A DNA stretch of 64,000 nt from Limnothrix sp. BL-A-16 (GTDB lineage Bacteria; Cyanobacteriota; Cyanobacteriia; CACIAM-69d): NCBI GenBank assembly GCA_041937175.2, contig CP166615.1, positions 4,475,750-4,539,749 of the forward strand, read 5' to 3'. Below are positions 7,480 to 31,756 of this stretch, piece after piece. The position numbers and the translations under genes were made by a program. Below the pieces are notes generated by a model. The model saw nothing but the letters and a program-made list of their open reading frames with translations. It searched no databases and was not told the origin of the DNA. Positions within the stretch are counted from its first letter, which is position 1. Each line of letters starts with the position of its first letter.

Positions 7480-8115
7480 TCAGCAGCCGCAGCGATCGCT
7501 CCGCTGGCCCCACCGTTGCCCGCGCCCCGAACCATGGCCCCGGCGATAGCGACCTTGGCCACAGCCGCCACCCGCGACGGCCACCATTTCCGCCGATTCT
7601 GGCCAATGTTCGGCAGGGCTGGAAGGGGCTAGGTCGATCGTGATCCAGGCGGTTTCTGGGGTAACGGCGATCGATGGGGATGATTGAACCGGCCCACCCG
7701 AAGCCGAGCGATCGGCACAACGTTGGAAAGCCTGCAGGTGATTTTGTTGGGAAGCCCGCTGCAAATTCAAAAACACCCGCTGCACGTCGGGATAGTTGCG
7801 CGTGGCTGCCAGCAACCGCCGATACATTTCAGCATTTTCAATTTCACCTGCAACCCCCGCTTGGCAGGCCGCCGCGATCGATTCTGGGGAAGTGACCCGT
7901 TGGGGCCATTCATCCACAGGAACAGGAATGTTGTATTTCCAGAACAACGGCAGCAGGGCCCGAATATGTCGTTCTTCGGAAGCCAAAATGTTAACAAAAG
8001 GACGGATCGGGCCAAATTTCTGAATGACCAGTCGATAGGTGGCTCGGGCCTTAAATTCATCATTCAAAGCTTCAATTAATGCCGCAGCCAATACCGCTTG
8101 CATTGCAATCTCCAT
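7480..8115 (-). CDS. Ferritin-like (DUF2202-like) four-helix-bundle protein with Gly/Arg/Cys-rich C-terminal tail
   Basis: ALNDEFKARATY...SEERH...GEIENAEMY...SQQNHLQAF pattern of carboxylate/His diiron-type ligands. Confidence 0.72.
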   Translation of the reverse strand: MEIAMQAVLAAALIEALNDEFKARATYRLVIQKFGPIRPFVNILASEERHIRALLPLFWKYNIPVPVDEWPQRVTSPESIAAACQAGVAGEIENAEMYRRLLAATRNYPDVQRVFLNLQRASQQNHLQAFQRCADRSASGGPVQSSPSIAVTPETAWITIDLAPSSPAEHWPESAEMVAVAGGGCGQGRYRRGHGSGRGQRWGQRSDRCGC

Positions 8116-8158
8116 TGATAAAAATTGTTAAATGAATCACCGACATTTTGTAGAAACA

Positions 8159-8183
8159 AACCTACCCAGAAACTGGGTAGGTT
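8159..8183 (-). terminator. Hairpin downstream of feoA (putative terminator)
   Basis: AACCTACCCAG-AAA-CTGGGTAGGTT perfect stem, followed on the minus strand by TGTTTCT. Confidence 0.5.
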
Positions 8184-8229
8184 CAGAGGAAGGCGAATAG
8201 GAGTGGGTGCTAAAAATTAGCGATGGGAG

Positions 8230-8460
8230 TTAAGCAGTTTGTTCTGGCGTGACAAAAATGCATTGCACCGTTTCCCGATCGAGTGCGGCCCGGGTGCGAC
8301 CAATGCTGACGATATAGGACGGAAACCGCTGCTCGATCGCAATTTGATTTCCCGGCAAAATGCCCAGCGCTGTGAGTTTGCGGAGCATGGCATCATCCTG
8401 GGTTTCCAAATGGGCAATCCAATGGGGATCGCTCGATCGAATCGTGGATAAAGCATTCAT
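8230..8460 (-). CDS. feoA: Ferrous iron transport protein A
   Basis: 76 aa; LRKLTALGILPG...IEQRFPSYIVSIGRTRAALD is typical of the FeoA SH3-like fold; adjacent to feoB. Confidence 0.88.
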   Translation of the reverse strand: MNALSTIRSSDPHWIAHLETQDDAMLRKLTALGILPGNQIAIEQRFPSYIVSIGRTRAALDRETVQCIFVTPEQTA

Positions 8461-8514
8461 GGCAATCAGTCTCCAGAGGTGAAAAACAGGTTAGGACGAA
8501 TAGGATTGCTCAGG

Positions 8515-8640
8515 GTTGAAAAGGTTGATTTTCTATAGCCTAATCGTCCTAGACAAGGGGCTTAAGCCCCTTGCTTCCCACGAGCCGCTAACGGCAGATC
8601 TAGGGCTTCGGTCTAAAGACGACAGGCCCTAAGCCCCTTG
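8515..8640. repeat. Left-truncated copy of the MITE also found at 51157-51298, including the palindrome CAAGGGGCTTAAGCCCCTTG
   Basis: Aligns by eye with ~51185-51298; ends GACGACAGGCCC-TA-AGCCCCTTG. Confidence 0.75.
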
Positions 8641-8723
8641 CCCCCCGAGATCTTGCAATGGCAGGATGCAAGCCTCGGGGATTGGATCATAACCCCTACA
8701 CCCAGCGTTCAAGCATCACTGCC

Positions 8724-10178
8724 CTAGAGCGCAATATGAAATAGGTTCAAACCCCAATTCAAAACATAGCCAACCGCCAAAGCGAAGGGGAAAATAAACA
8801 ACACCATGAGCGTTGCAGTTTTGACTCCTCGCTCCTTGATGATCATCTGCAATTGGGCAATGCAGGGCAAAAACAGCGTCAGCACCACCGCCGAAATCAG
8901 CAGTTGATCGCCCGTGAGCTGGCCGCCTTGCTGCAAATCAAACAAACCCGCAGCACCATAATCCCGCCGGAAGAATCCATAGAGCAAAATGGGTGCGGTT
9001 GCTTTAGGCAAACCCAAGCCTAGGGCGATCGGTTCAATGCCGCTAATCAGCCAATCAAAAATCCCCGTTAAGCGACCCACCCAAATAATGACCGAAGCCC
9101 AAATAAACAGCGGCAGAACTTCCCAGAAATACCACTTCATCCGCACCCAGGTTTTGGTGATCACGTTGCGGATTTTGGGCAAGCGCAAAGGGGGCAGTTC
9201 AATATAAAACTGAGCGGCAGAACCGGGCAGGAATTTATCAATTAAAAAGCCGGCCAGCAGGAAAATACCCACAATCAACCCAGCCCAGGCGACCAAGGCC
9301 GCCGGGCGCTGGGCCAAGAGACCCAAAATCACGCCCCATTGGGCTGCGCAGGGAATGGCCAAGGACAGCAAAAAGGTGGCGATCAGTCGTTCCCGCTTGG
9401 TTTCCAGGGTGCGGGTGACAATCGTGGCCATGGTGTCGCAGCCTAGCCCCAGCACGATCGGGATCACGGCTCGGCCCGAGAGACCGATCGCCTTAAATAG
9501 TCGATCGAGCATCAGGGATAAACGAGGCAAATAGCCGCTATCTTCCAGCAAGGAAAACATTAGAAAATAGGTCGCCACCACCGGCAACACGATCGCCGTG
9601 GCATAGCGAATCCCGAGGGTAATAATCCCGTACTCATGGGCAAAGAGATCCTGCAACGCGGTCCAGGGAATCACTTGCTCCGTGACATGGTTCACAACGG
9701 GGTTGATTTGTTCCTCAAAGAAGGTTTCGATCCGATCGACCAGTTCCCCGGCTCCGAATTCCCCAACGAATTTATAAACCCCCCAATAGAGCACCAACAC
9801 CAAAATGGGGAAGCCCGAAATGGGGTTCACCGTTAGCTTGTGAATCCATTCGCCCCAACGGCGCTGGCTGGGGTTCGGTTCTGCTAAGGTGTTTTGTTCG
9901 ATTACCTGGGCAAATCCTTGGCGGGTCTGGGCAATTTCCAGCGAAAGCGGTCGGTTGAGTTGGGCTTGGGTTGTGGCGATTAATTGCTCTAGATCCTGTT
10001 GTCGATCGCCCGGTAATTGCTCCCACAAATTGGGGTCTTTTTGCAGCAACAACAGGGCAAAGCTGCGGGATGACAAATGGCGATCGGCAAAGTCTTGGCC
10101 CCAGCCCGATCGCCACCAAGTTTCAATTTGGGCGATCGCCACTTCGATCGGCTCTAAATATTGGATTGTTAGACTCAT
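8724..10178 (-). CDS. feoB: Ferrous iron transporter FeoB, membrane (gate) portion without the GTPase domain
   Basis: LLEDSGYLPRL, VLGLGCD, TRTLETKRER, IPCAAQ, ELPPLRLP and TLFLPCIA are FeoB TM/gate motifs. Confidence 0.88.
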   Translation of the reverse strand: MSLTIQYLEPIEVAIAQIETWWRSGWGQDFADRHLSSRSFALLLLQKDPNLWEQLPGDRQQDLEQLIATTQAQLNRPLSLEIAQTRQGFAQVIEQNTLAEPNPSQRRWGEWIHKLTVNPISGFPILVLVLYWGVYKFVGEFGAGELVDRIETFFEEQINPVVNHVTEQVIPWTALQDLFAHEYGIITLGIRYATAIVLPVVATYFLMFSLLEDSGYLPRLSLMLDRLFKAIGLSGRAVIPIVLGLGCDTMATIVTRTLETKRERLIATFLLSLAIPCAAQWGVILGLLAQRPAALVAWAGLIVGIFLLAGFLIDKFLPGSAAQFYIELPPLRLPKIRNVITKTWVRMKWYFWEVLPLFIWASVIIWVGRLTGIFDWLISGIEPIALGLGLPKATAPILLYGFFRRDYGAAGLFDLQQGGQLTGDQLLISAVVLTLFLPCIAQLQMIIKERGVKTATLMVLFIFPFALAVGYVLNWGLNLFHIAL

Positions 10179-10246
10179 TTCTGTTTTCTATTGGCCTGCT
10201 CCTGGGCGGCCTTGATAGTTCAGCAATCGTTCAGCGATGGCACGCT

Positions 10247-10876
10247 CTAGCCCACCGCTGCCAAAACTGGGGCTGGGGCGCTGGCTAGGCGATCGGCCAG
10301 GGCTTCTCGCAATTGATCCACGCCCCAATTGCGGGCCGCCGCCATTAGCACCACCGGCACGCCCAACTTTTCGATTAGGGCTTCCCGATCGATGGTCAGG
10401 CCCCAACGCTGGGCCTCGTCCATCATGTTCACCGCCACAATCACGGGCAGCTCTGCTTCTAGCAACTGCACCGTTAGCGCCAACATGCGCCCTAAATTCT
10501 TGGCATCCAGCACATGGACGATCGCCCCAAAGGGTTCCGACATCAGTAAGTCCCGCGCTACCCGTTCCTCTTCACTGATCGGCAGCAGGGAATACATCCC
10601 CGGCGTATCAATCACGCTGACGGCGCGATCGTCCAGGGTCATGGCCCCGCGAGTCACTTCCACCGTTGTGCCGGGATAGTTAGACACCGTGACGTAAGTG
10701 CCAGTCAGGGCATGGAACAGGACGGATTTGCCCACATTCGGCATTCCCACCAGGGCAATTTGCGGCCCGCTTGGTTCGATCGGGGGCCGGTTGAAGTTTT
10801 CACCAAAAGGCAACCACCGTAGCGATCGCTTAGATCCACAACTTCCGTTGTTTTGATGGCACTGATGACAATCCAT
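10247..10876 (-). CDS. feoB: Stand-alone FeoB G-protein (small GTPase) domain
   Basis: G1 GMPNVGKS, G2 VSNYPGTTVE, G3 DTPG, G4 NMMD. Probable start MDCHQCH at 10876 (ORF track from 10933). Confidence 0.88.
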   Translation of the reverse strand: MDCHQCHQNNGSCGSKRSLRWLPFGENFNRPPIEPSGPQIALVGMPNVGKSVLFHALTGTYVTVSNYPGTTVEVTRGAMTLDDRAVSVIDTPGMYSLLPISEEERVARDLLMSEPFGAIVHVLDAKNLGRMLALTVQLLEAELPVIVAVNMMDEAQRWGLTIDREALIEKLGVPVVLMAAARNWGVDQLREALADRLASAPAPVLAAVG

Positions 10877-11066
10877 GACCCAACTCTCCCTGGCAATCTT
10901 GCCGGGCAACGTAATTTCAAGACGCTCTTTCAAGACGCTATCCCAAAGTGCTCAAACCCAAGTGCTCAAACACCTGCAAGCAGCCAATGCCAACGCCAGC
11001 CCCGGCCTGAGAGCATTCTGAGACGGTCGCTCTCATTTTAGGAGTGGCAGGATAGCTTACTGGAAA

Positions 11067-11400
11067 TCTGCAAGACTTTCTCAATAATCCTGATTGTAGT
11101 TCTTGAGCGATTTAGAGTCTAGAGAACTGGTGCTGGGGTGGGCCGATCTGCCCTGATCTGTGCTGAAATTTGGGGAGCGGCCGGGCCAATCTGGAAAGTG
11201 CAAACCGGAATCGACAAGCTCAAGAAATTCAGAATTTTCAATAATTGCAGCGATTGGGTGGGTATTGGAAATAGTGGAAATTTCACCCGTCGCAAACAAA
11301 CCATGGGGGGGCAAATTCTGTAATTTTGGCAATTAGCCTCTGGGGAGCAATGCCACTCTATTAAGAAAAATCAGCAATTTTATTGAAAATATCCGTCTAT
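11067..11400. promoter_or_regulatory. Putative Fur-type boxes in the divergent feoB / ATPase-operon promoter region
   Basis: AT-rich 19-mers resembling ATTGAGAATnATTCTCAAT at 11067-11085, 11360-11378 and 11382-11400; judged by eye only. Confidence 0.45.
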
Positions 11401-11562
11401 TGCACTTACACTGCTAATGAGTTTGGACAATTCTGTCCCTCCAAAAGCTTTTCCCCTAAGATCCTTGAAGCCGCTGCGCCCCTGGGGGCTTGTCCCGCTG
11501 GGTCGTGGGCCACTGGCTGGGATTGTTTGTGCCCCCCATCCTTGTTATGGGGAACTAAAGCC

Positions 11563-12435
11563 ATGAGTCATTCCTCAAACCCCAATCGCGAGCCATCCAC
11601 AACCCCTGAGCCGCAACCATTGGCTAATTCAGGGTTGGACTCGGCCGCTGAGGTCTCTCCAATCGCCCCAGCCTTCCAGGAGCAGCCCCCCGAGTCCGAT
11701 CGACTGGCGATCAATACTTCCTCTGCCCCTCCTCAATCCCAACCTGTGAACTCTGATTCTGATCTGGCCGAAACGGCAACGGGTGCTTTAGCGCAATCCA
11801 CCCCATCCGGCGCGATCGAGCCGGGCCCTGATTCTGCGTTAAGCAACCTCACCCTGTCCGCCCAACTGGGGCAATGGTTGCAGGAATACGGGGAAATTAC
11901 GACGATTTTGCCGGTGTTGGCGGGCTTGTTTGTCACAACCCGGTTTCAACTGCGCGGTTCGCGGGCCCTGTTGACCAACCTGGCGATCGCGGCGGTGGTG
12001 CGCCAAGTCATTCTGTACTTCAAACAGCAGGCCAATAGCTCGGCGGGAACGTTGGCGATGGTGACTGCGGGGGCGGCTTTGGCTACGGTGGCCACAACGT
12101 CGGCCCCCAACAACCAATCCGCAGCCTCTGCCCAAACAAGTCCCATTTCCCTCACTGAACTGGGCAGTAATTTGGGCATTGGTTTGGGTTGCGAAGATTG
12201 CACGATCGTCCATTCCGTGCCAGGGCGGATCCGGTTGCGGATCGATCGCCTCCGCACCGATCGCGCCTATGGCAAGCGGCTGGAAACCTTGCTGAAGGAT
12301 GAACCGATCGTGTTGGGCACGCGGATTAATCAGGCGGCGGCCTCCTTGGCGATTCAATACGACTCCACGGGCCTCTCGGATCTGGAGTTGGGGCTGCGAT
12401 TGTTGCAGGTGTTGAATCGCGCCAACCAGGATTAG
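11563..12435 (+). CDS. Membrane-associated protein with C-terminal HMA2-like domain (FezC/FezH-like)
   Basis: Disordered N-terminus, hydrophobic segments (ILPVLAGLFV, LLTNLAIAAVV), C-terminal IVHSVPGRIRLRI...RINQAAASLAIQYD. Probable start ATG 11563. Confidence 0.7.
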   Translation: MSHSSNPNREPSTTPEPQPLANSGLDSAAEVSPIAPAFQEQPPESDRLAINTSSAPPQSQPVNSDSDLAETATGALAQSTPSGAIEPGPDSALSNLTLSAQLGQWLQEYGEITTILPVLAGLFVTTRFQLRGSRALLTNLAIAAVVRQVILYFKQQANSSAGTLAMVTAGAALATVATTSAPNNQSAASAQTSPISLTELGSNLGIGLGCEDCTIVHSVPGRIRLRIDRLRTDRAYGKRLETLLKDEPIVLGTRINQAAASLAIQYDSTGLSDLELGLRLLQVLNRANQD

Positions 12436-12463
12436 CCACCATCAGGATTTCAGCGAAAAGGGC

Positions 12464-14740
12464 ATGGCAATGGCAAACATGGGGCAGACCGTGGCGGACG
12501 ATCGCACCTGGCGCTGGGAACGACCGGCGGCCTGGACCCATTGGGAATTGATCCATTGGCAGCCGGGCCGGGTGCGGGTGCGTTGGTGGCCGGCGCGGTC
12601 TTCGGCCTTGGCGGTGGAACGGTTGGAAGCGGCCCTAGCGGCGCGATCGGACGTGGCGGCGGTGCGGGTGGTGCGGGCGGCCGCTTCGGTGACGATTGTG
12701 TATCACGATCGCCAATTACCGATGGCCGGCCTGCGATTGCGCTTGGATGACTGGTTGGCCCTGGCTTGGCCCGATCGGGCCCTGCTGTTGCAACCGGCCC
12801 CAGACCTGCCAGCTCCTGCCACGGTCGGGGCCCCGGCGGAAACGGCGGAGGACGAGGACGAGGACGAGGAAGAAGCCTCCTTGCCCCAAACCCTAACGGC
12901 CTTGGCCTTGGCGGGCTTGGCCCGGTGGCGGCCCCTGTTGCCGTTGCGGGTGTTGGCGACGGTGGCCCTGTTGCGGGCCGTTTGGCCCGTGGCCCAGCGG
13001 GCCTGGCAAAGCGTGACAGTCGATCGCCGCTTGAATATTGACTGCATGGATCTGTTGGCGATCGGCCTCAGCAGCAGCGGCGGATCCTTGGTGGTTCCGT
13101 CCATGGTGTTGACCCTGCACGCCTTGGGGGATGCGATTCGCGATCGCACCGCTCGGGCCACGGCTCTGCGAACGGCTAACCTGTCCGACGCGATCGGGCG
13201 GTTTGCTTGGGTAAAAATGAACGACGGGCCGCCCCAACGAATTCCCAGTGACCAGCTCCAGGTGGGCGATTTGGTGGTGGTTTATCCCGGTGAGCAAATT
13301 CCCGCCGATGGGCCGGTGCTGTCTGGGGAAGCCACGATCGATGAAAAAAGCCTGACCGGGGAACCCTTGCCGGTGGCCGCCAGTGCGGGCCGTTGGGTTC
13401 ATGCTTCAACGTTGGTGCGATCGGGGCAAATTTACCTGCGTGCGGAACGGGTGGGCAACCAAACTCGCGCCGCCGCCAGCTTGGCCCTGTTGGAACAGGC
13501 CCCGGTCTATGACACCCGGATGGCCAACTATGCCGAACGGCTGGCCGACCGGGCGATCGGCCCGGCCTTGATTTTGGCCCTGGTGGTGCTGATTGCCACC
13601 CGCGATCCGGCCCGGGCGGCGGCGATTCTGACCCTGGACTTTGTGACCGGCATTCGGCTATCGATTCCCACGGCGTTCCTGGGAGCCTTGAACCACACCA
13701 CCCGTCACGGTGTGTTGGTGCGCAGTGGGCGAACCCTGGAACAGTTGGCGGCGATCGATACGGTGGTGTTCGACAAAACGGGCACCCTGACCCAGGGCGA
13801 CATCGTTTTAGAGCAGGTGTTGCCGGCCCAGCCGGACATCACCTCCGATCAGCTCCTGCAATTGGCCGCTTCGGCGGAGCAGCGGCTCACCCATCCGGTG
13901 GCCGAGGCGATCGTCCGGGCAGCGGCCGATCGGGGCCTGACCCTGAGCGATCGGGGCGAATGGAACTATGAAGTGGGCTTGGGGGTGCGGGCCCAAGTGG
14001 CGGCCAGCGATGTGCTGGTGGGCAGTGCGCGGTTTTTGATTCAACAGGGTGTGACGGGGTTGGGCGAATGGCTGACCACCCTGGATCAGCAGGCCAGCAG
14101 CCAACCCTCGATCGCCCAGCCTTCAATCTATGTGGCCGTGGATGGCCGGTTCATGGGGGAATTGCGCTACACCGACCCCCTGCGACCCGAAAGCGCCGCC
14201 CTGGTGCAAACCCTGCAAACGGAATTGGGGTTGGATGTGCGGCTGTTGACCGGCGATACGCCCGCCCGCGCAGCCCAGGTGGCGCGGGCCCTGGAAATTC
14301 CCACTGATCGGGTCTATGCGGAAGCCTTTCCCGATCGCAAAGCCACGATCATTCGCGACCTGCGGCGATCGGGGCGCACCGTGGCCTTTGTGGGCGATGG
14401 CCTCAACGACTCCGTGGCCCTGGCCTATGCGGATGTGTCCATTTCCTTTGAGCAGGGGTCGGAAATTGCCCGCGAAACCGCCGATGTGGTGTTGATGAAT
14501 AACCATTTGCTGGATCTGCTGGAGGTGTTAACCATCGCCCGCCAAACCCAAGGATTGATTGAACAAAACACCGCTTTGGTGGTGCTACCCAACCTGATTG
14601 CTTTGGGCCTGGCCACCACCCGCGGCCTCAGCCCCCCGATCGCCACTGCCATCCACAACGGCTCCGCGATCGCCGCCGGCCTCAACAGTTTGCGCCCCCT
14701 GATTCAGCACCACTTTTTTGAGCGGCCCCGCGATCGCTAG
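12464..14740 (+). CDS. Heavy-metal P1B-type ATPase, FezB/P1B-6-like
   Basis: SLTGE, DKTGTLT, HP, LTGD and GDGLND motifs. TM motif LDFVTGIRLSIP replaces CPC/SCA; C-terminal HNGSA...N; N-terminal HWQPGRVRVR. Confidence 0.9.
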   Translation: MAMANMGQTVADDRTWRWERPAAWTHWELIHWQPGRVRVRWWPARSSALAVERLEAALAARSDVAAVRVVRAAASVTIVYHDRQLPMAGLRLRLDDWLALAWPDRALLLQPAPDLPAPATVGAPAETAEDEDEDEEEASLPQTLTALALAGLARWRPLLPLRVLATVALLRAVWPVAQRAWQSVTVDRRLNIDCMDLLAIGLSSSGGSLVVPSMVLTLHALGDAIRDRTARATALRTANLSDAIGRFAWVKMNDGPPQRIPSDQLQVGDLVVVYPGEQIPADGPVLSGEATIDEKSLTGEPLPVAASAGRWVHASTLVRSGQIYLRAERVGNQTRAAASLALLEQAPVYDTRMANYAERLADRAIGPALILALVVLIATRDPARAAAILTLDFVTGIRLSIPTAFLGALNHTTRHGVLVRSGRTLEQLAAIDTVVFDKTGTLTQGDIVLEQVLPAQPDITSDQLLQLAASAEQRLTHPVAEAIVRAAADRGLTLSDRGEWNYEVGLGVRAQVAASDVLVGSARFLIQQGVTGLGEWLTTLDQQASSQPSIAQPSIYVAVDGRFMGELRYTDPLRPESAALVQTLQTELGLDVRLLTGDTPARAAQVARALEIPTDRVYAEAFPDRKATIIRDLRRSGRTVAFVGDGLNDSVALAYADVSISFEQGSEIARETADVVLMNNHLLDLLEVLTIARQTQGLIEQNTALVVLPNLIALGLATTRGLSPPIATAIHNGSAIAAGLNSLRPLIQHHFFERPRDR

Positions 14741-14835
14741 CCTTCCCTGGCTGCCCACCGCTCGCCCCTGTTCACCCCGCCGTTCACCCCGTTTTCACTG
14801 CCTCGATTTGCAAACCCCTCACCCCCTTCAGACCC

Positions 14836-15168
14836 ATGGCTTGGATTCATCTGGATAAATCCGTTGTCACCTTTCACATCAAGGAAATGATTGAGGATGG
14901 CTGTCAACAGGACTTGACTGCCTTGCTGGGGTTGGGGGCCGTGCTGGTGGGGCCCGTGGTGGCGCGATCGCTCCTGCAATCCTTGCACCAGCGCCAACGC
15001 CCGATCTCCCTGAGCGATTGGATTACCCAAGCCCAACAAACGGCCCCCGCTCCCACCTTGCGCCTGGCTCCCGCGGCCCAAAACCAACGCCCCAACCGCG
15101 CAATGGCAATTGGGGCTTCTCAGCAGGATTCAGTTCAGGGCACAGCACAAACCAACAACGCCGCCTAG
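14836..15168 (+). CDS. Small putative single-pass membrane protein
   Basis: 110 aa with one Gly-rich hydrophobic stretch LTALLGLGAVLVGPVVA; follows the ATPase. Confidence 0.55.
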   Translation: MAWIHLDKSVVTFHIKEMIEDGCQQDLTALLGLGAVLVGPVVARSLLQSLHQRQRPISLSDWITQAQQTAPAPTLRLAPAAQNQRPNRAMAIGASQQDSVQGTAQTNNAA

Positions 15169-15337
15169 GAGAGCGTTAACCGCTCGATCGGACTCGGCAG
15201 GAACACCAAGGAGCTTATTTCCGGGTGTTGTATTTCTGAGCGCTCATTGAAAGTGCTCATTCTTTGATGACATCGGGACGGAATTGGGCAGTGAGTGGAT
15301 CGGCTGGCGCATCCAGCCCGATCGCTCACCCTTCCCA

Positions 15338-15718
15338 TTAGACCAGCCGGTGTTCTTCTTCCGGCGAAGTTGCATTCAACGCCGGGGGCACTTCCGATCC
15401 GGGCGCGCTGGCCGTTAAACCCAACGGCACCCGGGCCTCCGCGAGGGCTTCAGCACGGGCCTCCGCCGCAATATCCGCGATCATTTCGCCGGTTTCCGCG
15501 ATCGCGGCTTTTGTCTTTTCAAACAACACAACCCCAGTTTTCAACCCTGCCTTGAGCGCTGGTTTCAACAGAGGCAAAATAATCGGGGCAACCACCACCG
15601 TTGCCACACCGGCCAAGGCCACCTTAGCCGCAGGTTCTTGAGCCAAACCGATAATGCGCGATCTCAGACGAAGTTCGCCAAGATTCATCATGGGAGTTAC
15701 TCGCCACCGACGATACAT
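15338..15718 (-). CDS. DUF5132-like small membrane protein (FezA-type)
   Basis: LAGVATVVVAPIILPLLKPALKAGLKTG (hydrophobic segment plus GxxxG), then amphipathic helix AETGEMIADIAAEARAE. Start uncertain. Confidence 0.7.
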   Translation of the reverse strand: MYRRWRVTPMMNLGELRLRSRIIGLAQEPAAKVALAGVATVVVAPIILPLLKPALKAGLKTGVVLFEKTKAAIAETGEMIADIAAEARAEALAEARVPLGLTASAPGSEVPPALNATSPEEEHRLV

Positions 15719-16288: not shown

Positions 16289-17353
16289 TTACCGTGCGCC
16301 CACCAGCAACTTGTCAGCATTCTTCGCCGTTTCAAAGAAGAAGGCGGCGTTTTCTTCCGGCGTGGTGGACAGGATGCCGTGACCCAGGTTCAGGACGTGG
16401 CCCTTGCGGCCAGCCTTGTTGATCGTGTCGATAATGCGATCGCGGATGAATGCCTTGGAGCCAAACAGCACACCGGGATCAATATTCCCTTGCACCATGA
16501 TGTCCGGGCCCAGGCGGCGACGCGCATCGGCCATATCCACCGTCCAATCAACGCTGACCACATTCGCGCCCGATTGGCCCATCCGTTCCAGAATGCCGGC
16601 GCTGCCGCTGATGTAGAGCACCAGGGGCACATCGGGGTAGCGATCGCGCACCTTCTTGAAGGCCCGTTGTTGGTAGGGCAGGGCAAAGGTGTCGTAATCC
16701 TGGGGCGACAGTTGACCCGCCCAGGAGTCAAACATTTGCACCATTTGCGCGCCGCATTCGATTTGGTGACACATGTAATCTGCCACCATGTCCGACAGCT
16801 TTTCGAGGAAAGCGTGCAGCACGGCTGGCTCCGAGAAGGCCATCCGCTTAATCACGGCGTATTCCTTGGAGCTTTTGCCCTCGATCGCGTAGGCCGCCAA
16901 CGTCCAGGGCGCACCCACAAAGCCCAATACGGCCGCTTTGTTGCCCACTTCCTGGCGAAGGGTGGTCAAGATGGTGCGGATGTAGGGCATGGCCGCATCG
17001 GGATCCAGGCGAGTCAGGGCCTGAACTTGCTCCATCGTCCGAATCGGCGACTCAATCACGGGGCCGCGGCTTTCGATGATGTCGAAGGGGATGCCGATTC
17101 CGGTCAGGGGCGTAAGAATGTCCGAAAACATGATCACGCCATCGGGTTGGAAGGCGCGGAAGGGTTGCAGGGAAATTTCGATCGCCAAGTCAGCAATTTC
17201 CGAGCGATCGCGGAAGGACGGATATTTTTCGCGCAAATCCCGATAAACCTTCATGTAACGCCCTGCTTGGCGCATCATCCACACGGGCGGGCGAGGCAGT
17301 TCTTCGCCCCGCAGCGCTCGCAACAAGTAAGGCGTATCGTTTGCGCTGGTCAT
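16289..17353 (-). CDS. hemE: Uroporphyrinogen decarboxylase
   Basis: [36 protein letters not shown]. Confidence 0.97.
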
Positions 17354-24268: not shown

Positions 24269-25855
24269 CTAGAACTTGAACTCGGTGCGCAGTACACCCA
24301 TCACAGCCGTATCACCGTTGTCGTTGGCATCAAACACAGCCACCACACCCGGAGTCAGGTAGATGTTGTCATTGAGCGCGAACTTGTACATGGCTTCCAC
24401 CAGAATCGGCGTGTTGTCGTCTTCTTCAACGCCGTCGGCATTCACCACCGTCGGCGGTTGACCCACCGTCAGTGCGCCCATGCTGCCTTCCTTGCCCAGG
24501 TCGGGGAAGGTGAAGCCCACACCCCAGGTCAGAATGTCAGCATTCGCATCATCGTTGTTCAGGCTGTCGGCCCAGGTGTAGCCGAAGAAGCCATGCATCC
24601 CGAAGTGCTCCGAGAAGCGGTATTGGGTTTGGAAGCCAATGTTGTCGCTATCGAAGGAGTCGCCGTTAAACAGGTTGAAGGTGTTCTTCGTGCCCGAGCC
24701 GCCCAGGACGTTGAAGGGGCGATCGACCCGAGAGTAGTAGGAGTGGGCGTAAAGCAGACCGGCCGAGAAGCGATCGTTGGAACTGGTGTAGTTCAAGCTG
24801 ACGCTGGCGCTGTAGCTGCCGTCAAACAAACCACGACCTTCATCGGGGCTGGCGGAGTTGCCGGCCGAGTAGAGCGCGGCCACCGTGAAGTTGTCGCTAG
24901 CCCGCCAACGAATCCCCGCACCACCATAGGTGGGTTGGCGATAGATCGGGTTCAAGTCGGCAAAGGCGCTGATGGCTCCATTCCCGCCGCCATAGAGGGG
25001 GGTGTGAACCGGGTGGGCATCTTCGAGCAGCAAATCTTGACCCACGATCGCCGTGGCGCGATCGCTCAGGGGGAACTCATAGGCCAAGAAGGTCAGGCGG
25101 AAGTTCGTATCGGAACCGTTGCCGTAGCTGAGGTTGGTTAGCCCCGTCACATCGTTCAGCGGGCTGCGAACGCTGTTGGATTCCAAACGGGTGAACAGCT
25201 TGTCCTTTCCGGTGAAGCTTGTGACCAACAGCAACCGCGTCCGTTGGCTGAAGGTAACGTTTTCTGCGCCGCTGTCGTCGCTGTCGTCACCCGTGAGCGT
25301 GCCACCCTGCATTCCGAAGATCACCTGACCGGACAGCTTGGTGGTGGTTGAAAACTGGTTGGCTTCCAGTTCCGAAGTGCGTGCTTCCAGGGAATCAACC
25401 CGGCCGCGCAGGGCTGCCAACTCAGCGGCAAATTCTTCTTGCAGCTTTTGCAGCTTCCGCAAATCTTCCTTGGTGGCCAGCGGGTCGGTGGCGGCCTTGA
25501 TCAGGTCATTGATCCGATCGAGGCAAGCATTCAAACCAGCGGCGAACTCGTAGCGGCTGAGGGGGCGGTTGCCCTTGAAGGTGCCATCGGGATAGCCCGC
25601 AATACAGCCGTAGCGCTCCACCAGGGACTGCAATGCCTGGAAGGCCCAATCGGTGGGCTGCACATCAGACAGTTGCGAGACGGAAGTTACTTGATCCAGC
25701 GCCATTTCCGAGTCGATCGACCCGAGCAGCGTCGCTTCCGTGGAGGCGTTCACCCCAACCGGACTTTCAGCAGCCGCGCGATCGGCCGTGCCCAACATTG
25801 CCCCACCCGAAATAGCCAAGGCGGCCATCAGGATTCCATAGCGACTTTTCAACAC
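24269..25855 (-). CDS. Cyanobacterial SLH-domain/OprB outer-membrane porin ('iron uptake porin' family)
   Basis: QVTSVSQLSDVQPTDWAFQALQSLVERYGCIAGYPDG, QFSTTTKL, C-terminal LRTEFKF. Confidence 0.93.
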   Translation of the reverse strand: MLKSRYGILMAALAISGGAMLGTADRAAAESPVGVNASTEATLLGSIDSEMALDQVTSVSQLSDVQPTDWAFQALQSLVERYGCIAGYPDGTFKGNRPLSRYEFAAGLNACLDRINDLIKAATDPLATKEDLRKLQKLQEEFAAELAALRGRVDSLEARTSELEANQFSTTTKLSGQVIFGMQGGTLTGDDSDDSGAENVTFSQRTRLLLVTSFTGKDKLFTRLESNSVRSPLNDVTGLTNLSYGNGSDTNFRLTFLAYEFPLSDRATAIVGQDLLLEDAHPVHTPLYGGGNGAISAFADLNPIYRQPTYGGAGIRWRASDNFTVAALYSAGNSASPDEGRGLFDGSYSASVSLNYTSSNDRFSAGLLYAHSYYSRVDRPFNVLGGSGTKNTFNLFNGDSFDSDNIGFQTQYRFSEHFGMHGFFGYTWADSLNNDDANADILTWGVGFTFPDLGKEGSMGALTVGQPPTVVNADGVEEDDNTPILVEAMYKFALNDNIYLTPGVVAVFDANDNGDTAVMGVLRTEFKF

Positions 25856-26251: not shown

Positions 26252-27574
26252 ATGTCCGGTCAATTTAATCGCCGTAAATTTCTGTTTTACGGCTCCGCTG
26301 CCCTGAGTGCCAGTGTTTTACTCAAGGCCTGTGGCCAAGCCCCGGAAAGCGCTCCATCGCCGGGTAGCCCTAGCCCCGGGGCTAGTCCCGCCGGATCTCC
26401 CGCTGCTAGTGGTGACACGATCAAAGTCGGTGTTCTGCATTCCCAGAGCGGCACGATGGCGATCAGCGAAAAGAGCGTGATCGATGCTGAACTGCTGGCG
26501 ATCGAAGAGATCAACAAGGCCGGCGGTGTCCTGGGCAAGCAAATCGAGCCGGTTGTGGAAGATGGAGCCTCTGACTGGCCCACCTTCGCAGAAAAGGCGA
26601 AAAAGCTGATCGACCAAGACAAGGTGGTCACCATTTTTGGTTGCTGGACCTCTGCCAGCCGCAAAGCAGTGCTGCCGGTCTTCGAGGAGAAGAAGCACAT
26701 GCTTTGGTATCCCGTGCAGTATGAGGGGCAGGAATGTTCCCAAAACATCTTCTACACGGGCGCTGCGCCGAACCAACAGATTGAACCGGCCGTTGAGTGG
26801 CTGTTCAAAAACAAAGGTAAAGAATTCTTCCTGGTCGGTTCTGACTACGTTTTCCCGAGAACTGCCAACACGATCATCAAAGCCCAAGTGGAGAAGCTGG
26901 GCGGCAAAATCGTTGGTGAAGACTACATTCCCCTGGGCGGCACGGAAGTTACGCCCATCATCACCAAGATTCGCAGCGCTCTGCCGAACGGTGGCGTAAT
27001 CTTCAACTCCTTGAACGGCGACAGTAACGTTGCTTTCTTCAAGCAGTTGCAAGGGGCTGGTTTGGGCCCTGATAAATATCCTTCGATGTCCGTGAGTATT
27101 GCGGAAGAAGAAGTGAAGGCGATCGGGGTGGAATACCTGGAAGGTCACTACGCCGCTTGGAACTACTTCATGTCGGTGGATTCTCCGGCGAACAAGAAAT
27201 TCGTGGATGCGTTCAAGGCTAAATATGGCCCCGATCGCGTGACGAATGACCCCATGGAAGCGGCCTACATTGCCGTTTATCTGTGGAAGCAAGCCGTTGA
27301 AAAGGCGAAGACCGCCGATGATCTGGGGAAAGTGCGGGCGGCTGCCTATGGCCAAACCTTCGATGCCCCAGAAGGAATGGTGACCATGAATGCGAACCAT
27401 CACCTGTCGAAGGTGGTGCGGATTGGCGAAATCGAAAAGAGCGGTCAATTCAAGGTCGTGTTTTCAACGGATAAGGCGATCGAGCCGGTGCCCTGGAACC
27501 AATTTGTGGCTGAAACCAAGGGCTTCGCTTGCGACTGGTCGGATCCGAAGAAGGGCGGCAAGTACAAGATCTAA
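26252..27574 (+). CDS. urtA: Urea ABC transporter substrate-binding protein
   Basis: Tat-like RRKFL leader; [38 protein letters not shown]. Confidence 0.95.
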
Positions 27575-27744
27575 GCCATTTGATCTTTGTAACCCTGATG
27601 ATGCTTGGCGGGCAATAGCCACTGCATAGGCATCGGTTCTACAGCAGCCAAGGGGCAGTCGGCCAAGTCGTCACTGCCCCTTTGTTGTTGAAGGGCCATG
27701 GTAATGAGGTTTATTTCACCCGCACACTCAACCCAGTTCTTGAG

Positions 27745-28893
27745 ATGCTTGATGCCATTTTTAGCGGAATTAGCATTGGCTCCGTGTTGCTGATTGCAGC
27801 ATTAGGCCTGGCGATTGTGTTTGGGCTAATGGGTGTGATTAATATGGCCCACGGCGAGCTGATGATGCTCGGAGCCTACACAACGTTTTTGGTTCAGAAT
27901 CTGTTCAAATCCTTCGGTGAGGGGGCGTTTGAAATTTATATTTTCCCAGCGCTGATTGCTGCTTTCATTGTCACAGCGATCGCGGGGGTGATTTTGGAGC
28001 GAGGGGTGGTGCGATTTCTCTACGGTCGCCCCCTGGAAACCCTGTTGGCTACCTGGGGGGTGAGCCTGATGTTGCAGCAATTTGTTCGCAGCATTAATTG
28101 GGTGATGGCGATCGGGCTGGTGCTGTTTTGCGCCCTCTTTTTTGGGGCTTGGGGGTTGTTGGGGAAACGGGCCAATTGGGTGGCGATCAAAACTCAGGCC
28201 TTGAGCATTTTGTTGCCGGTGTCGGCGGGGATTTCAATCGCCGTGGGCAGCCTGTTAGCTCAACAATTCAAGTTAACGGTCACCAAGCCCTGGTTCGGGG
28301 CCCAAAACGTGGATGTGACGGCTCCCCGCTGGCTGCGGGGTGGAATTCCGATCGGGGATTCGCAACTCCCGTCCACCCGCTTATTCATCATTGCCCTGAC
28401 GATTCTTTGCCTCTTTGGCCTGTATTGGTTCCTGAATCGATCGCTCTGGGGCCTGCGCATCCGTGCCGTCACCCAAAATCGCAGCATGAGCGCCTGCTTG
28501 GGCATTGCCACCAACACCGTGGATTCTTTGACCTTTGCACTGGGTTCCGGACTGGCGGGAATTGCGGGCAGCGCGATCGCCCTGTTGGGTTCCGTGGGCC
28601 CCAACACCGGCCAAAACTACATCGTTGACACCTTCATGGTGGTGGTGGTGGGCGGCGTTGGCAAACTGGTTGGCTCGATCGTTGCCGCATTGGCCATTGG
28701 GACTGCGAGTTTCCTGATTGGTTCCGGTACTTTGGCCGCCGTGTTTGCAACGGTTCCGCCCCTGGCGGAGTTCTTTAACTTCTTTGCCACCGCCAGCATG
28801 GCCAAGGTGATGGTTTTTGCCGCCATCATCGTCTTTTTGCAAGTGCGTCCGGGCGGTCTTTTTCCCCAAAAGGGACGGACGGTTGAGTCCTAA
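27745..28893 (+). CDS. urtB: Urea ABC transporter permease
   Basis: GLMGVINMAHGE, RPLETLLATWG, RAVTQNR. Probable start near 27745. Confidence 0.93.
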   Translation: MLDAIFSGISIGSVLLIAALGLAIVFGLMGVINMAHGELMMLGAYTTFLVQNLFKSFGEGAFEIYIFPALIAAFIVTAIAGVILERGVVRFLYGRPLETLLATWGVSLMLQQFVRSINWVMAIGLVLFCALFFGAWGLLGKRANWVAIKTQALSILLPVSAGISIAVGSLLAQQFKLTVTKPWFGAQNVDVTAPRWLRGGIPIGDSQLPSTRLFIIALTILCLFGLYWFLNRSLWGLRIRAVTQNRSMSACLGIATNTVDSLTFALGSGLAGIAGSAIALLGSVGPNTGQNYIVDTFMVVVVGGVGKLVGSIVAALAIGTASFLIGSGTLAAVFATVPPLAEFFNFFATASMAKVMVFAAIIVFLQVRPGGLFPQKGRTVES

Positions 28894-29038
28894 ACCGTGA
28901 TCTGGAAGCCTTGTTCTAGCGTTCGGATCGCTCTAAATTGCACATCTTTCCAGTTTCGATGCTTCAGTTTCGATTCTCAAATTCCAATTCGAGAATTGCA
29001 GCAATTGCTAACGACAATCCTCATTGCGGGATGTGAGT

Positions 29039-30208
29039 ATGGGATCTTTACCTTCAACCCGAAAACAGCGATCAATTTCCCTCAGTTCGGAGGATTGGGC
29101 AGCCATTGCTCTCCTGATTGTGGCGCTTCTGATCCCACTGTTGCTGTCGGATTTTCGCTTGAATCTTCTGGGGCGCTATCTATCCCTGGCGATCGTGGCC
29201 CTAGGCATTGATTTAATCTGGGGCTACACGGGTCTGCTCAGTTTGGGTCATGGGGTGTTTTTTACCCTGGGTGGCTATGCCTTGGCCATGCACCTGAAGC
29301 TGGTGCAAATTCCGCCCGATGCCACGGTGAAATTGCCGGAATTCATGTCTTTGTATGGGGTGACAGAACTGCCTTGGTTTTGGCAACCGTTTTATAACTT
29401 TCCGGTGACCTTGGTGGGCATGGTTGCTGTGCCCATGGTTGCCGCCAGTATTCTCGGTTACCTGGTGTTTCGGAACCGGATTCGAGGTGTGTATTTCTCC
29501 ATCCTGACCCAGGCGGCGACCATTGTTTTCTTCAACTTTTTCAATGGCCAGCAAAAGTTGATTAACGGTACTAATGGGCTAACCAATTTTGGGCAATTTC
29601 TGGGCTTTGATATTTCATCCCCAGGAACCCAAAAAATCATCTATTTCATCACGCTTGGTGGATTAGTGGTTGCTTACTTAGTTTGTCGCTGGCTCATTTC
29701 CGGCCGCTTTGGGCGACTCCTGATCGCCATTCGGGATGATGAACCTCGGGTTCGTTTTTCGGGCTATAACCCCACGGGTTTTAAGGTGGTGGTGTTTGCG
29801 GTTTCAGCGGCCCTAGCGGGCTTGGCCGGGGCATTATTTACCCTGCAATCGGGAATTGTGTCGCCTAAAACCATGGATATTCCCTTCTCGATCGAGATGG
29901 TGATTTGGGTGGCCGTTGGTGGGCGTGCCACGCTCCTGGGCGCAATTGTGGGTGCGGTGTTGGTGAACTTTGCCAAGAGCCTTTTGAGCGAACAATTCTC
30001 GGCGATTTGGCTCTTTTTCCAAGGGGGCTTGTTCCTGTTGGTGGTGATGGTGTTGCCCGACGGCATTGTTGGTTGGCTCAAGACCTCCGGTATGGATTTA
30101 ATCAATCGACTGATCGGTCGATCGCCCCAGCCGGTTGCCACCTATCCCAGCTTGGAAACCGATCCCGAAGTTCAATTTGAGCGCGAAGAATTGCAGGATA
30201 AATCATGA
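29039..30208 (+). CDS. urtC: Urea ABC transporter permease
   Basis: DLIWGYTGLLSLGHG, RIRGVYFSILTQA, AIRDDEPRVRFSGY. Confidence 0.93.
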   Translation: MGSLPSTRKQRSISLSSEDWAAIALLIVALLIPLLLSDFRLNLLGRYLSLAIVALGIDLIWGYTGLLSLGHGVFFTLGGYALAMHLKLVQIPPDATVKLPEFMSLYGVTELPWFWQPFYNFPVTLVGMVAVPMVAASILGYLVFRNRIRGVYFSILTQAATIVFFNFFNGQQKLINGTNGLTNFGQFLGFDISSPGTQKIIYFITLGGLVVAYLVCRWLISGRFGRLLIAIRDDEPRVRFSGYNPTGFKVVVFAVSAALAGLAGALFTLQSGIVSPKTMDIPFSIEMVIWVAVGGRATLLGAIVGAVLVNFAKSLLSEQFSAIWLFFQGGLFLLVVMVLPDGIVGWLKTSGMDLINRLIGRSPQPVATYPSLETDPEVQFEREELQDKS

Positions 30209-30984
30209 CCCATTCTTTGGATCTGCCAACGGCGGCGGCTCAACCCATCCTCGCCATTCAAAACCTGACCGTCAACTTTGATGGATTCAAGGCCCTGAAT
30301 AACCTAACCTTCAGCATGGCCCCCGGTGAATTGCGGGTGGTGATTGGCCCCAATGGTGCAGGGAAAACCACGTTTTTGGACACGATCACGGGCAAAGTGA
30401 AACCCACCCAAGGGGATGTGTTGTTCAAGGGCCGCAGCCTGAAAGGGCGTAGTGAATACGAAATTGCGCGCTTAGGCATTGGTCGCAAATTCCAAACGCC
30501 TCGGGTTTATCAAAACCTGACCGTGGCCCAAAATTTGGAACTGTCGGGCAATCCCCAAAAAGGTGTGCTCCATAGTTTGTTTCGGAAACCCCTGCGATCG
30601 GAACGACAGTCCGTGGCCCAGCTATTGGAAACTCTGGGACTCACAAGCAAAGCCCAATTACCGGCGGCCCTGCTCTCCCATGGGGAAAAACAACGGCTAG
30701 AAATTGGCATGTTGGTGGCTCAATCGCCGGATTTGTTATTGGTGGATGAACCGGCGGCCGGCTTAACCGATGAAGAAACCTACCAACTGGGGGAATTGTT
30801 GATTTCTTTGGCGGAAGTGCATTCCATCATTGTGATTGAGCATGATATGGAATTTGTCCGGCAAATTGCCCGCACCGTGACGGTTTTGCATGAGGGATCA
30901 TTGCTGTTTGAAGGCACGATGGATGAAGTGCAAAGCGATGAACGGGTGATCGAAGTCTATTTGGGCAAAGAAGACGAGGACTAG
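30205..30984 (+). CDS. urtD: Urea ABC transporter ATP-binding protein
   Basis: GPNGAGKT, GRKFQTP, LSHGEKQ, DEP. Confidence 0.93.
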   Translation: MTHSLDLPTAAAQPILAIQNLTVNFDGFKALNNLTFSMAPGELRVVIGPNGAGKTTFLDTITGKVKPTQGDVLFKGRSLKGRSEYEIARLGIGRKFQTPRVYQNLTVAQNLELSGNPQKGVLHSLFRKPLRSERQSVAQLLETLGLTSKAQLPAALLSHGEKQRLEIGMLVAQSPDLLLVDEPAAGLTDEETYQLGELLISLAEVHSIIVIEHDMEFVRQIARTVTVLHEGSLLFEGTMDEVQSDERVIEVYLGKEDED

Positions 30985-31039
30985 GGATTTGGAAATTGCC
31001 CCTAGAAAAGACCCAAGTAATTGAGATGGAGGACTAGGG

Positions 31040-31756
31040 ATGTTGAAGGTTTCGGGCTTAAATGTTTATTACGGCGAAAGTCATATTCTGCGCGATGTGG
31101 ATATGACTGTTCGCGAAGGGGAAATGACTTGCTTAATTGGTCGAAATGGGGTCGGAAAAACGACGCTCCTGAAAACTATTGTGGGCCTGCTGCCACCTCG
31201 TAGCGGGGCGATCGCCCTGGCCGATTCCCCGATCGCCCATTTGTCTCCCGATCGCCGGGCTAAGTTGGGCATTGGCTATGTGCCCCAAGGTCGCGATATC
31301 ATTCCCCGGCTGACGGTGCGAGAAAACCTACTGTTGGGTTTGGAAGCTTGCCGAGGAACCGATCGCGCCGGAGCCAATGCGAAGGATTTGACGATTCCCG
31401 AAGAAATTTTTGACCTCTTCCCGGTGTTGAAAACCATGCTGAATCGGATGGGGGGCGACCTGTCCGGGGGACAACAACAGCAACTGGCGATCGGGCGGGC
31501 TTTGATGGGCAAACCGAAGCTTTTGGTGTTGGATGAACCCACGGAAGGGATTCAACCCTCGATCGTGTTGCAGATTGAAGAAGCGGTGCAACATATTATT
31601 CGATCGACCGGGATTGCGGTGTTGTTGGTGGAACAGCACTTGCACTTTGTGCGCAAGGCGAATCACTACTACGCCATGCAAAAGGGTTCAATGGTGGCCT
31701 CTGGCAACACGAGCGAACTCAGCAATGAAACGATTCAACAATTCCTGGCGGTTTAG
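31040..31756 (+). CDS. urtE: Urea ABC transporter ATP-binding protein
   Basis: GRNGVGKT, YVPQGR, LSGGQQQQ, DEPTEGIQPS. Confidence 0.93.
   Translation: MLKVSGLNVYYGESHILRDVDMTVREGEMTCLIGRNGVGKTTLLKTIVGLLPPRSGAIALADSPIAHLSPDRRAKLGIGYVPQGRDIIPRLTVRENLLLGLEACRGTDRAGANAKDLTIPEEIFDLFPVLKTMLNRMGGDLSGGQQQQLAIGRALMGKPKLLVLDEPTEGIQPSIVLQIEEAVQHIIRSTGIAVLLVEQHLHFVRKANHYYAMQKGSMVASGNTSELSNETIQQFLAV

Follow-up and report, generated by a model that had tools for sequence, protein, structure and literature searches.

A candidate fez-like gene cluster with a cysteine-free relative of the FezB pump in the cyanobacterium Limnothrix sp. BL-A-16

Results

The window analysed here is a stretch of 64,000 nucleotides from the genome of the cyanobacterium Limnothrix sp. 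BL-A-16 (GenBank assembly GCA_041937175.2, contig CP166615.1, positions 4,475,750 to 4,539,749), in which a divergent cluster of eight genes brings together a Feo iron uptake system and a P1B-type ATPase. The initial annotation had proposed it as a candidate locus for a ferrosome (fez)-like iron-storage organelle. All eight genes are real open frames, and both their content and the divergent two-arm layout are borne out by Pfam and NCBIfam scans. The left arm, on the reverse strand, comprises a ferritin-like DUF2202 protein (7480-8115; PF09968, E 4.3e-5, 23.8 bits with the cut-off at 22), FeoA (8230-8460; PF04023, E 1e-11) and a FeoB split into a membrane (permease) part (8724-10178; Gate, FeoB_C and FeoB_Cyto domains, with TIGR00437 over positions 235-594) and a G-domain part (10247-10933; FeoB_N, E 1.1e-56), so that the left arm is composed as initially described. 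It is followed by a divergent control region of 629 bases (10934-11562) containing two inverted copies of ATTTTCAATAA, and then, on the forward strand, by an HMA_2/CoBaHMA membrane protein (11563-12435; PF19991, E 3.6e-8), a cysteine-less P1B-6-like ATPase of 758 residues (12464-14740; TIGR01525, 472 bits) and a small single-pass membrane protein of 110 residues (14836-15168). A gene for a DUF5132 protein (15338-15718, reverse strand; PF17195, E 1.8e-11) converges on this right arm. The association goes beyond chance, because DUF5132 and HMA_2 are each single in the genome and the arrangement recurs in other cyanobacterial families.

The catalytic motifs of the pump are all intact (TGE at residue 298, DKTGT at 437, HP at 477 and GDGLND at 644), and TGE, DKTGT, HP and GDGxND are invariant across 26 aligned sequences. 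In its hydropathy profile, two segments precede the actuator domain, two more lie ahead of DKTGT, and the C-terminal part forms one broad region. FezB and the P1B-6 class are characterised by six transmembrane helices rather than eight. The fourth transmembrane segment (TM4) reads LDFVTGIR (residue 391), as opposed to CPC or SPC in P1B pumps and D[Y/F]SCA in FezB, and D392, T395, G396 and R398 are invariant among the 26 relatives. The whole protein contains a single Cys. TM5 carries PN at 709 and TM6 IHNGS at 730, while the N-terminal domain is arginine-rich, with GRVRVR at residue 35 and invariant H31, R36 and R38, and there is no CxxC domain. Relatives of the pump carry PF19991.

According to the available text of the Grant and Komeili preprint (10.1101/2020.01.10.902569), FezB and the P1B-6 class are defined by D[Y/F]SCA in TM4, HNxxT in TM6 and an arginine-rich N-terminus; a 2026 review gives the P1B-6 motifs as SCA and N-x18-H-N-x-(S/T) (PMC13460109). 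The Limnothrix pump does not carry D[Y/F]SCA. Its TM6 reads I-H-N-G-S-A, with HN and HNx[S] present and Ala at the T position of HNxxT, and the spacing from the TM5 Asn to the TM6 His, counted by eye, is 20 residues versus 18 in the published motif. Shared with the FezB-type sequences are a TM4 Asp-aromatic pair and a basic residue (D-F-x-x-x-I-R in the pump, D-Y-S-C-A-[IL]-K in FezB-type pumps), the TM5 Asn and the TM6 His-Asn. HNG[ST] is kept in 10 of 10 DFVTG-type pumps, and the other cyanobacterial subtypes read NNG or SNG at this site.

The pump was searched against 1.84 billion representative sequences, and the best 150 were sorted by motif. Many of them read D-[FYL]-x-[TS]-G together with [HNS]-N-G-[ST]; a second group, about 30-38% identical to the pump, has DYSCA and LHNxxT, and a few fit neither. 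Identity is 98% to proteins of Limnothrix sp. FACHB-881 and L. redekei and 55-60% to many other cyanobacterial proteins; in the comparison with FezB it is 28-34%. Trees were built with FastTree (216 sequences) and with IQ-TREE (51 rows, LG+G4, with SH-aLRT, the Shimodaira-Hasegawa-like approximate likelihood ratio test). In the IQ-TREE phylogeny a superclade (SH-aLRT 99) unites a CPC row resembling CtpC, a DYSCA clade (97) and a cysteine-less clade (99); the latter two are sisters (99), and the Limnothrix pump belongs to the cysteine-less clade, within which the cyanobacterial pumps form one clade (100). Classical CPC, SPC, CPH and CPG pumps fall outside the superclade, and FastTree concurs. 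The pump therefore does not group with Zn, Cd, Co or Cu exporters, the placement that would have spoken against the original proposal, and lies in a P1B-6-like superclade instead. The N-terminal Arg-rich motif by which the initial annotation characterised FezB is present, but TM4 has DFVTG where FezB has D[Y/F]SCA; in the trees the protein is a cysteine-free sister of FezB and not a member of the FezB clade.

The solved structures nearest to the pump are those of CopA, with none found for the P1B-6-like superclade. No pump more than 37% identical to the query occurs in five FezB-bearing genomes or in 201 genomes of the Desulfobacterota-type phylum. A metagenome scan with non-cyanobacterial cysteine-less pumps gave, among the matches listed, one usable partial relative, cyanobacterial-looking (L134), and nine usable DYSCA loci. 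For FezH, the available text of the Grant and Komeili preprint gives no motif.

Among 201 sampled cyanobacterial genomes (96 genera; matches at E 1e-100 or better), the pump is found in 22 genomes and 17 genera, some with two paralogues, and the protein names of carriers point to Limnospira, Trichodesmium, Lyngbya, Roseofilum and Planktothricoides. DUF5132 accompanies it in all 22 pump-bearing genomes and occurs in 8 of the 179 lacking it, a descriptive count since the genomes are not independent. Synteny was surveyed within the fetched flanks of 17 loci from 12 cyanobacterial genomes, nine of the DFVTG subtype and eight of other subtypes. Around DFVTG pumps we found FeoB in 7 of 9 loci, DUF5132 in 6, a separate HMA_2 protein in 6, a small protein of the 14836 type in 4 and DUF2202 in 3; around the other subtypes the figures are 0 of 8 for FeoB, 4 for DUF5132 and 5 for HMA_2. 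Of the two DFVTG loci that have no FeoB, one is a 9.4-kb contig and the other has a two-domain FeoA protein. Two DFVTG loci have single-strand operons, in the order FeoA, FeoB, ferritin, DUF2202, HMA_2, ATPase and small protein (L037) or FeoA, FeoB, DUF5132, HMA_2, ATPase and DUF2202 (L041). Synteny is conserved, and the flanks fetched for the DFVTG-type loci showed no Ca or Mn genes.

A second, paralogous type of cluster is present in heterocyst-forming-type genomes (L045, L046, L050, L053 and L043 15406-19120). Its order is a pump with D[FL][AC]TG and NNGS, DUF5132 and a protein of about 196 residues that spans the whole HMA_2 profile. It is devoid of Feo genes, and its substrate may differ.

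The HMA_2 protein begins with a low-complexity N-terminus, continues with two hydrophobic segments (residues 112-154) and ends in an arginine-rich domain with GRIRLRI at 221; it is the only PF19991 hit reported in the 4.56-Mb genome. The longest frame of the gene starts at 11383; a start at the ATG at 11563 or later is favoured because of a promoter-like element at 11383-11412 and because the orthologues, found in L037, L038, L040, L041 and L042, are shorter (175-228 amino acids). All 6 of the 6 orthologues aligned keep H-S-V-P-G-R-I-R-L-R-I, which matches the basic residues of strands 1-2 and the upstream His that characterise the CoBaHMA domain. With a PF19991 match and two hydrophobic segments, the protein is indeed the HMA-like membrane protein that had been recognised, and it belongs to the same family as the open reading frames (ORFs) at the FezC position, since those of Mailhella (L066, E 9e-11) and Rhodobacter (L072, E 7e-9) match HMA_2. 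Two features of the Limnothrix protein are absent from five aligned orthologues: a Ser/Pro/Gln-rich N-terminal extension of about 95 residues (window 11563-11850) and a C-E-D-C just before the HMA_2 domain (window 12190-12201).

The small protein encoded at 14836 has one hydrophobic segment (residues 25-50) and a conserved N-terminal motif. Its orthologues adjoin the ATPase in L037, L038, L040 and L041 and keep a GxxxxG spacing; GxxxG is not conserved among them. It has no match in Pfam or NCBIfam, and an Atlas search gave nothing usable.

The DUF5132 protein has one transmembrane helix followed by a Lys-rich and Glu/Ala-rich helix with D-I-x-A-E-A-[KR], and PF17195 is found in a single copy in the genome. 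Ten of 10 DUF5132 members match PF17195 only, and the C-terminal His-rich metal-binding motif of the PacL kind is absent. One genome per species was scanned with a DYSCA pump profile, which gave about twenty FezB-type loci from Lachnospiraceae, Collinsella, Flavonifractor, Mailhella, Rhodobacter capsulatus, Amorphus and a betaproteobacterial metagenome-assembled genome. In the Firmicutes and Actinobacteria loci, FezB is preceded by a small DUF6110 gene; the FezA-position ORF of the betaproteobacterial locus (L067) matches Pfam DUF5132 at E 3e-4, below the cut-off, and that of a metagenomic DYSCA locus (L184) matches both DUF1490 and DUF5132.

A DUF5132 profile made from ten cyanobacterial proteins was run on 7072 ORFs of FezB-type and metagenome loci, a few of which, such as L134, are cyanobacterial-looking. 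After two true DUF5132 ORFs, the FezA-position ORFs rank first (E 4.5e-4, 1.6e-3, 0.011 and 0.021). In the reverse search DUF5132 ORFs come first, weakly, among 1494 cyanobacterial ORFs (best E 0.024). Moreover, hhalign aligns DUF5132 with the FezA-type proteins over 61 columns, from the membrane helix to a common D-[IMV]-x-A-E-A-[KR] motif (E 4.4e-4). DUF5132 is thus likely, as far as profile comparison can tell, to be a remote relative of FezA (DUF6110) and of PacL (DUF1490), and likely a FezA/PacL-like partner of the pump. DUF1490 has already been linked to DUF6110 and P1B-6 pumps in the accessible part of the PacL paper (PMC9374683). In literature searches naming DUF5132, no occurrence was found apart from a preprint on Microcystis (10.1101/2024.07.07.602159).

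The betaproteobacterial locus L067 holds HMA_2, DUF2202, a FezA-like ORF, FezB and FeoAB together. Its DUF2202 ORF, which lies in a DYSCA-FezB cluster, is 37% identical over 126 amino acids (E 8e-24) to the Limnothrix protein. Judging from these matches, the HMA_2 and DUF2202 proteins are clearly akin to proteins of FezB clusters, and an absence of Fez homology among the neighbours, the other finding that would have told against the initial proposal, did not occur. The FezA-position ORF of L067 (7252-7965) has a His-rich stretch before its membrane helix, recalling the PacL metal-binding motif.

The cluster contains the only Feo system of the genome according to a profile search, and its FeoB_N is the only strong match (192 bits; the next has 61 bits). 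That the split FeoB is a broken gene was considered and rejected, since both parts are intact and the same two-gene split is found in L039, from another family. The nearest solved chain to the DUF2202 protein is MJ0754 (3q4n, E 2e-5), and orthologues are present in L037, L040 and L041. Its C-terminus (window 7480-7580) is a Gly/Arg/His/Cys-rich tail of about 35 residues, which recurs, differently worded, in the L037 and L041 orthologues; this tail is polar and is not a membrane GxxxG helix. A single PF00210 match occurs in the genome, a Dps-like protein (162 residues; genome 3700797-3701285; L252 298-786) that is intact, the TAG flagged in it being its stop codon, and no bacterioferritin was found in the genome at E 1e-5; therefore there would be room for another iron store.

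Fur-like boxes had been described between the two arms. Against the classical 19-mer, the intergenic region reaches at most 11/19, which is also the shuffle median, and the classical Fur box was therefore discarded as evidence. Footprinting across species, applied to nine upstream regions, did not give a significant signal either, with top 14-mers scoring 87 versus 83-86 with shuffled partners. The sequence ATTTTCAATAA occurs at 11234-11244 on the forward strand and at 11380-11390 on the reverse strand, in opposite orientation and 146 bases apart. It has 9 exact copies in the 4.56-Mb genome versus 1 for its reversed control, and 2 of the 9 lie between the arms; two to three of the other seven are clearly intergenic. 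One exact copy is situated about 150 bases upstream of a gene for a 356-residue protein of the IsiA/Pcb family (TIGR03041, 384 bits, above the cut-off), with a one-mismatch copy in opposite orientation 57 bases away. There are 45 intergenic sites in the genome at no more than one mismatch, and the genes downstream of them include a FUR-family regulator (one-mismatch copy), a ferrochelatase, an IscA-like protein and an ABC ATPase with a TOBE domain. We take ATTTTCAATAA as moderate support for a putative Fur-type iron control of the cluster; its core is presumably near-identical to that of an Anabaena FurA site. The promoter-like element at 11383-11412 overlaps the second copy, and promoter-like counts are not above chance. 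Elsewhere in the genome, two one-mismatch copies (ATTTTGAATAA) lie 43 bases apart, at 294089 and 294132, upstream of an SPFH/Band 7 gene.

Several other features were observed around the cluster. HemE (window 16289-17353) directly adjoins it, and an 'iron uptake porin' (NF033921, E 3.9e-154) is encoded 8.5 kb downstream on the reverse strand (window 24269-25855). A complete urtABCDE urea ABC transporter operon occupies window 26252-31756, with a strong AT skew (-0.27) in its urtB/C part (window 28001-30000). The first 4572 bases of the window have a low GC content (0.41-0.43 versus about 0.57 elsewhere) and contain two hybrid histidine kinase / response regulator genes. An ORF of 1059 residues at window 37008-40187, on the forward strand, has no NCBIfam match at E 1e-10, and the surrounding GC content is lower (0.45).

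Discussion

The observation made in the initial annotation is real, and its interpretation is right in part: what the genes suggest is a version of the fez theme with a cysteine-free pump, one that cyanobacteria have conserved. The component classes that had been listed are represented by HMA_2, DUF2202 and Feo, but the small partner is DUF5132 and not DUF6110, and the domain order of the HMA protein is reversed. The cluster can be called fez-like, and ferrosome formation by it would be a further step.

The fez clusters of Desulfovibrio magneticus, Shewanella putrefaciens and Rhodopseudomonas palustris, as far as the accessible text of the Grant and Komeili preprint (10.1101/2020.01.10.902569) describes them, resemble the Limnothrix cluster in the arginine-rich N-terminal domain of the pump, D-[YF] in TM4, His-Asn in TM6 and, possibly, a hydropathy pattern of six membrane segments. 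They are also alike in having a separate arginine-rich HMA membrane protein, a small single-pass partner of the pump, DUF2202 and FeoA/FeoB as neighbours, and, likely, a response to low iron. They differ in SCA versus VTG in TM4, in DUF6110 versus DUF5132, in GxxxG and in the reversed order of the HMA protein; moreover, the Limnothrix host is an oxygenic phototroph. The main text of that preprint, without its supplementary tables, does not mention cyanobacteria, and no report of a cyanobacterial ferrosome came up among the sources reached by a literature search on ferrosomes and cyanobacteria. The existence of further ferrosome-like structures is listed as an open question in the accessible part of a 2026 review (PMC13463818).

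Three other systems offer comparisons. PfeT-type (P1B-4) pumps are Fe2+ efflux P1B ATPases and are thus alike in being thought to move Fe2+ out of the cytosol, but they have an SPC motif, belong to another clade (the SPC rows are outside the superclade) and have neither an arginine-rich domain nor FezA- or FezC-like partners; they are named as an outgroup in the available text of the Grant and Komeili preprint. PacL1-CtpC of Mycobacterium tuberculosis, in the part of its description accessible to us (PMC9374683), likewise combines a P1B-6-like pump with a single-pass protein that has a Glu/Ala-rich cytosolic helix. CtpC, however, keeps CPC in TM4, exports zinc and has no Feo or ferritin-like neighbours, whereas the Limnothrix pump has no CPC and its partner matches PF17195 only and lacks a His-rich C-terminus. 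The arginine-rich HMA_2 domain itself corresponds to the CoBaHMA domain, described, in the accessible text, together with calcyanin, a marker of intracellular calcium-carbonate formation (PMC8890360). In Microcystis, two DUF5132 and two CoBaHMA genes flank ccyA, and one DUF5132 gene and a CoBaHMA-hairpin gene are co-expressed with it, as stated in the available text of the preprint (10.1101/2024.07.07.602159). That neighbourhood is also cyanobacterial and places DUF5132 and a CoBaHMA (PF19991) protein with a helical hairpin beside genes for an intracellular mineral, but it contains no P1B pump; the partners there are calcyanin, marked by a triple GlyZip domain, and a Ca2+/H+ exchanger, and calcium carbonate takes the place of iron as the mineral.

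The interpretation we tentatively prefer, though we regard it as somewhat less probable than not, is an iron-regulated sequestration of Fe2+ behind a membrane, in which Feo imports iron and the FezB-related pump fills a membrane-bounded store, as in ferrosomes. Under low iron the divergent promoter would open via Fur, Feo would bring Fe2+ into the cytosol and the pump would move it across a membrane into the closed store. Organisation of the pump within the membrane of the store would fall to the DUF5132 and HMA_2 proteins, which presumably assemble with it there by analogy with FezA/FezC or PacL, and the DUF2202 protein may handle iron on the cytosolic side. Fe2+ would be the substrate, given the Feo, ferritin and DUF2202 neighbours and the His-Asn site on which an iron reading is based. 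The target membrane would enclose a dedicated compartment and be neither the plasma nor the thylakoid membrane. The pairing of an importer with an outward pump in a single operon would make sense if what the pump fills is an internal store. Ferrosomes have been reported to form on iron limitation in the accessible part of the same 2026 review (PMC13463818).

A number of points weigh against this interpretation. The pump lacks the SCA motif of P1B-6, which leaves Fe2+ as a presumed substrate. The Limnothrix HMA_2 protein has the hairpin before the domain, and FezC-type proteins have the domain before the membrane helices. The initial annotation described the DUF5132-like protein as a GxxxG membrane protein; DUF5132 membership and a G58-x3-G62 in the Limnothrix copy stand, but the motif occurs in that copy only and is not conserved across the family, and DUF6110 keeps G20-x3-G24. 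In the comparison of DUF5132 with FezA-type proteins the hhalign probability is 34%, and the Pfam cross-hits are below the gathering cut-off. As to regulation, ATTTTCAATAA was chosen after being seen, the classical Fur consensus and the cross-species footprinting are at chance, and most of the 32 genes examined by sites at no more than one mismatch are unrelated to iron. Known ferrosomes form under anaerobic growth according to the preprint, and the present host makes oxygen. The related PacL1-CtpC systems are plasma-membrane efflux platforms and not organelles, as far as the accessible text of that paper goes (PMC9374683). Finally, in the available text of the Microcystis preprint (10.1101/2024.07.07.602159), DUF5132 and CoBaHMA proteins flank the calcium-carbonate marker ccyA, and these accessory helpers are therefore not iron-specific.

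The main rival is an efflux platform, in which the pump acts as a safety valve and exports surplus Fe2+ over the plasma membrane or into the thylakoid lumen, with DUF5132 as a PacL-like scaffold and no organelle. P1B pumps as a rule move metals out of the cytosol, and the iron context of the locus is equally strong for export as for storage. CtpC, itself P1B-6-like, works with the single-pass Glu/Ala-rich PacL1 in membrane foci in the accessible description (PMC9374683), and the FezA-position ORF of L184 matches DUF1490 as well as DUF5132. Nevertheless, detoxification of excess iron fits poorly with cotranscription with an importer and with a promoter motif common to iron-starvation genes; storage is suggested by the ferritin-like genes found within the same operons, and the DUF5132 proteins do not have the C-terminal His-rich metal-binding motif of the PacL kind. 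We regard iron export as possible, though rather unlikely.

Less likely still, and on the whole improbable, is transport by the pump of another hard cation (Mn2+, Ca2+ or Mg2+) in the service of some other mineral or of homeostasis, with an indirect link to Feo. A thiol-free ion site, in which D, T, N, H and S offer only oxygen and nitrogen ligands, would suit such cations, other subtypes of the clade have no Feo neighbours, and in the accessible text of the Microcystis preprint (10.1101/2024.07.07.602159) DUF5132 and CoBaHMA genes adjoin, and are co-expressed with, ccyA and a Ca2+/H+ exchanger. Against this, FeoB accompanies 7 of 9 DFVTG pumps, in operons that also include ferritin and DUF2202. 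Only the Feo-linked subtype retains the His-Asn pair of FezB, and its fetched flanks revealed no Ca or Mn genes. A non-transporting ATPase, with a membrane-shaping, sensing or regulatory role controlling Feo activity, could be imagined from the loss of the canonical metal-binding tripeptide, the conserved Arg in TM4 and the proposal, cited in the available part of the same preprint, that CoBaHMA is regulatory, possibly via binding of anionic lipids. It seems very improbable, since the four catalytic motifs are invariant in all 26 sequences and the polar residues of TM4, TM5 and TM6 are conserved as in transporting relatives.

Returning to sequestration in a membrane-bounded store, a wider proposal is that a thiol-free pump allows oxygenic phototrophs to form such a store for iron in the manner of ferrosomes, and that CoBaHMA hairpin proteins and proteins of the DUF5132/FezA/PacL type constitute a common toolkit for pumps that fill mineral compartments, of iron here and of calcium carbonate beside ccyA. 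We consider this doubtful at present, yet its consequences deserve to be stated. In many lakes and over much of the ocean, the growth of cyanobacteria and their nitrogen fixation are iron-limited, and the known cyanobacterial iron stores are protein cages, namely bacterioferritin and Dps. If the proposal is true, a lipid-bound store fed by Feo would represent a new route of iron economy in the bloom- and mat-forming genera that carry this pump family, and ferrosome-type biology would extend from anaerobes to oxygen producers. The pump would also provide a natural cysteine-free variant for asking how FezB-type pumps select iron, and DUF6110, DUF1490 and DUF5132, together with the CoBaHMA domain, would be tied into one functional theme.

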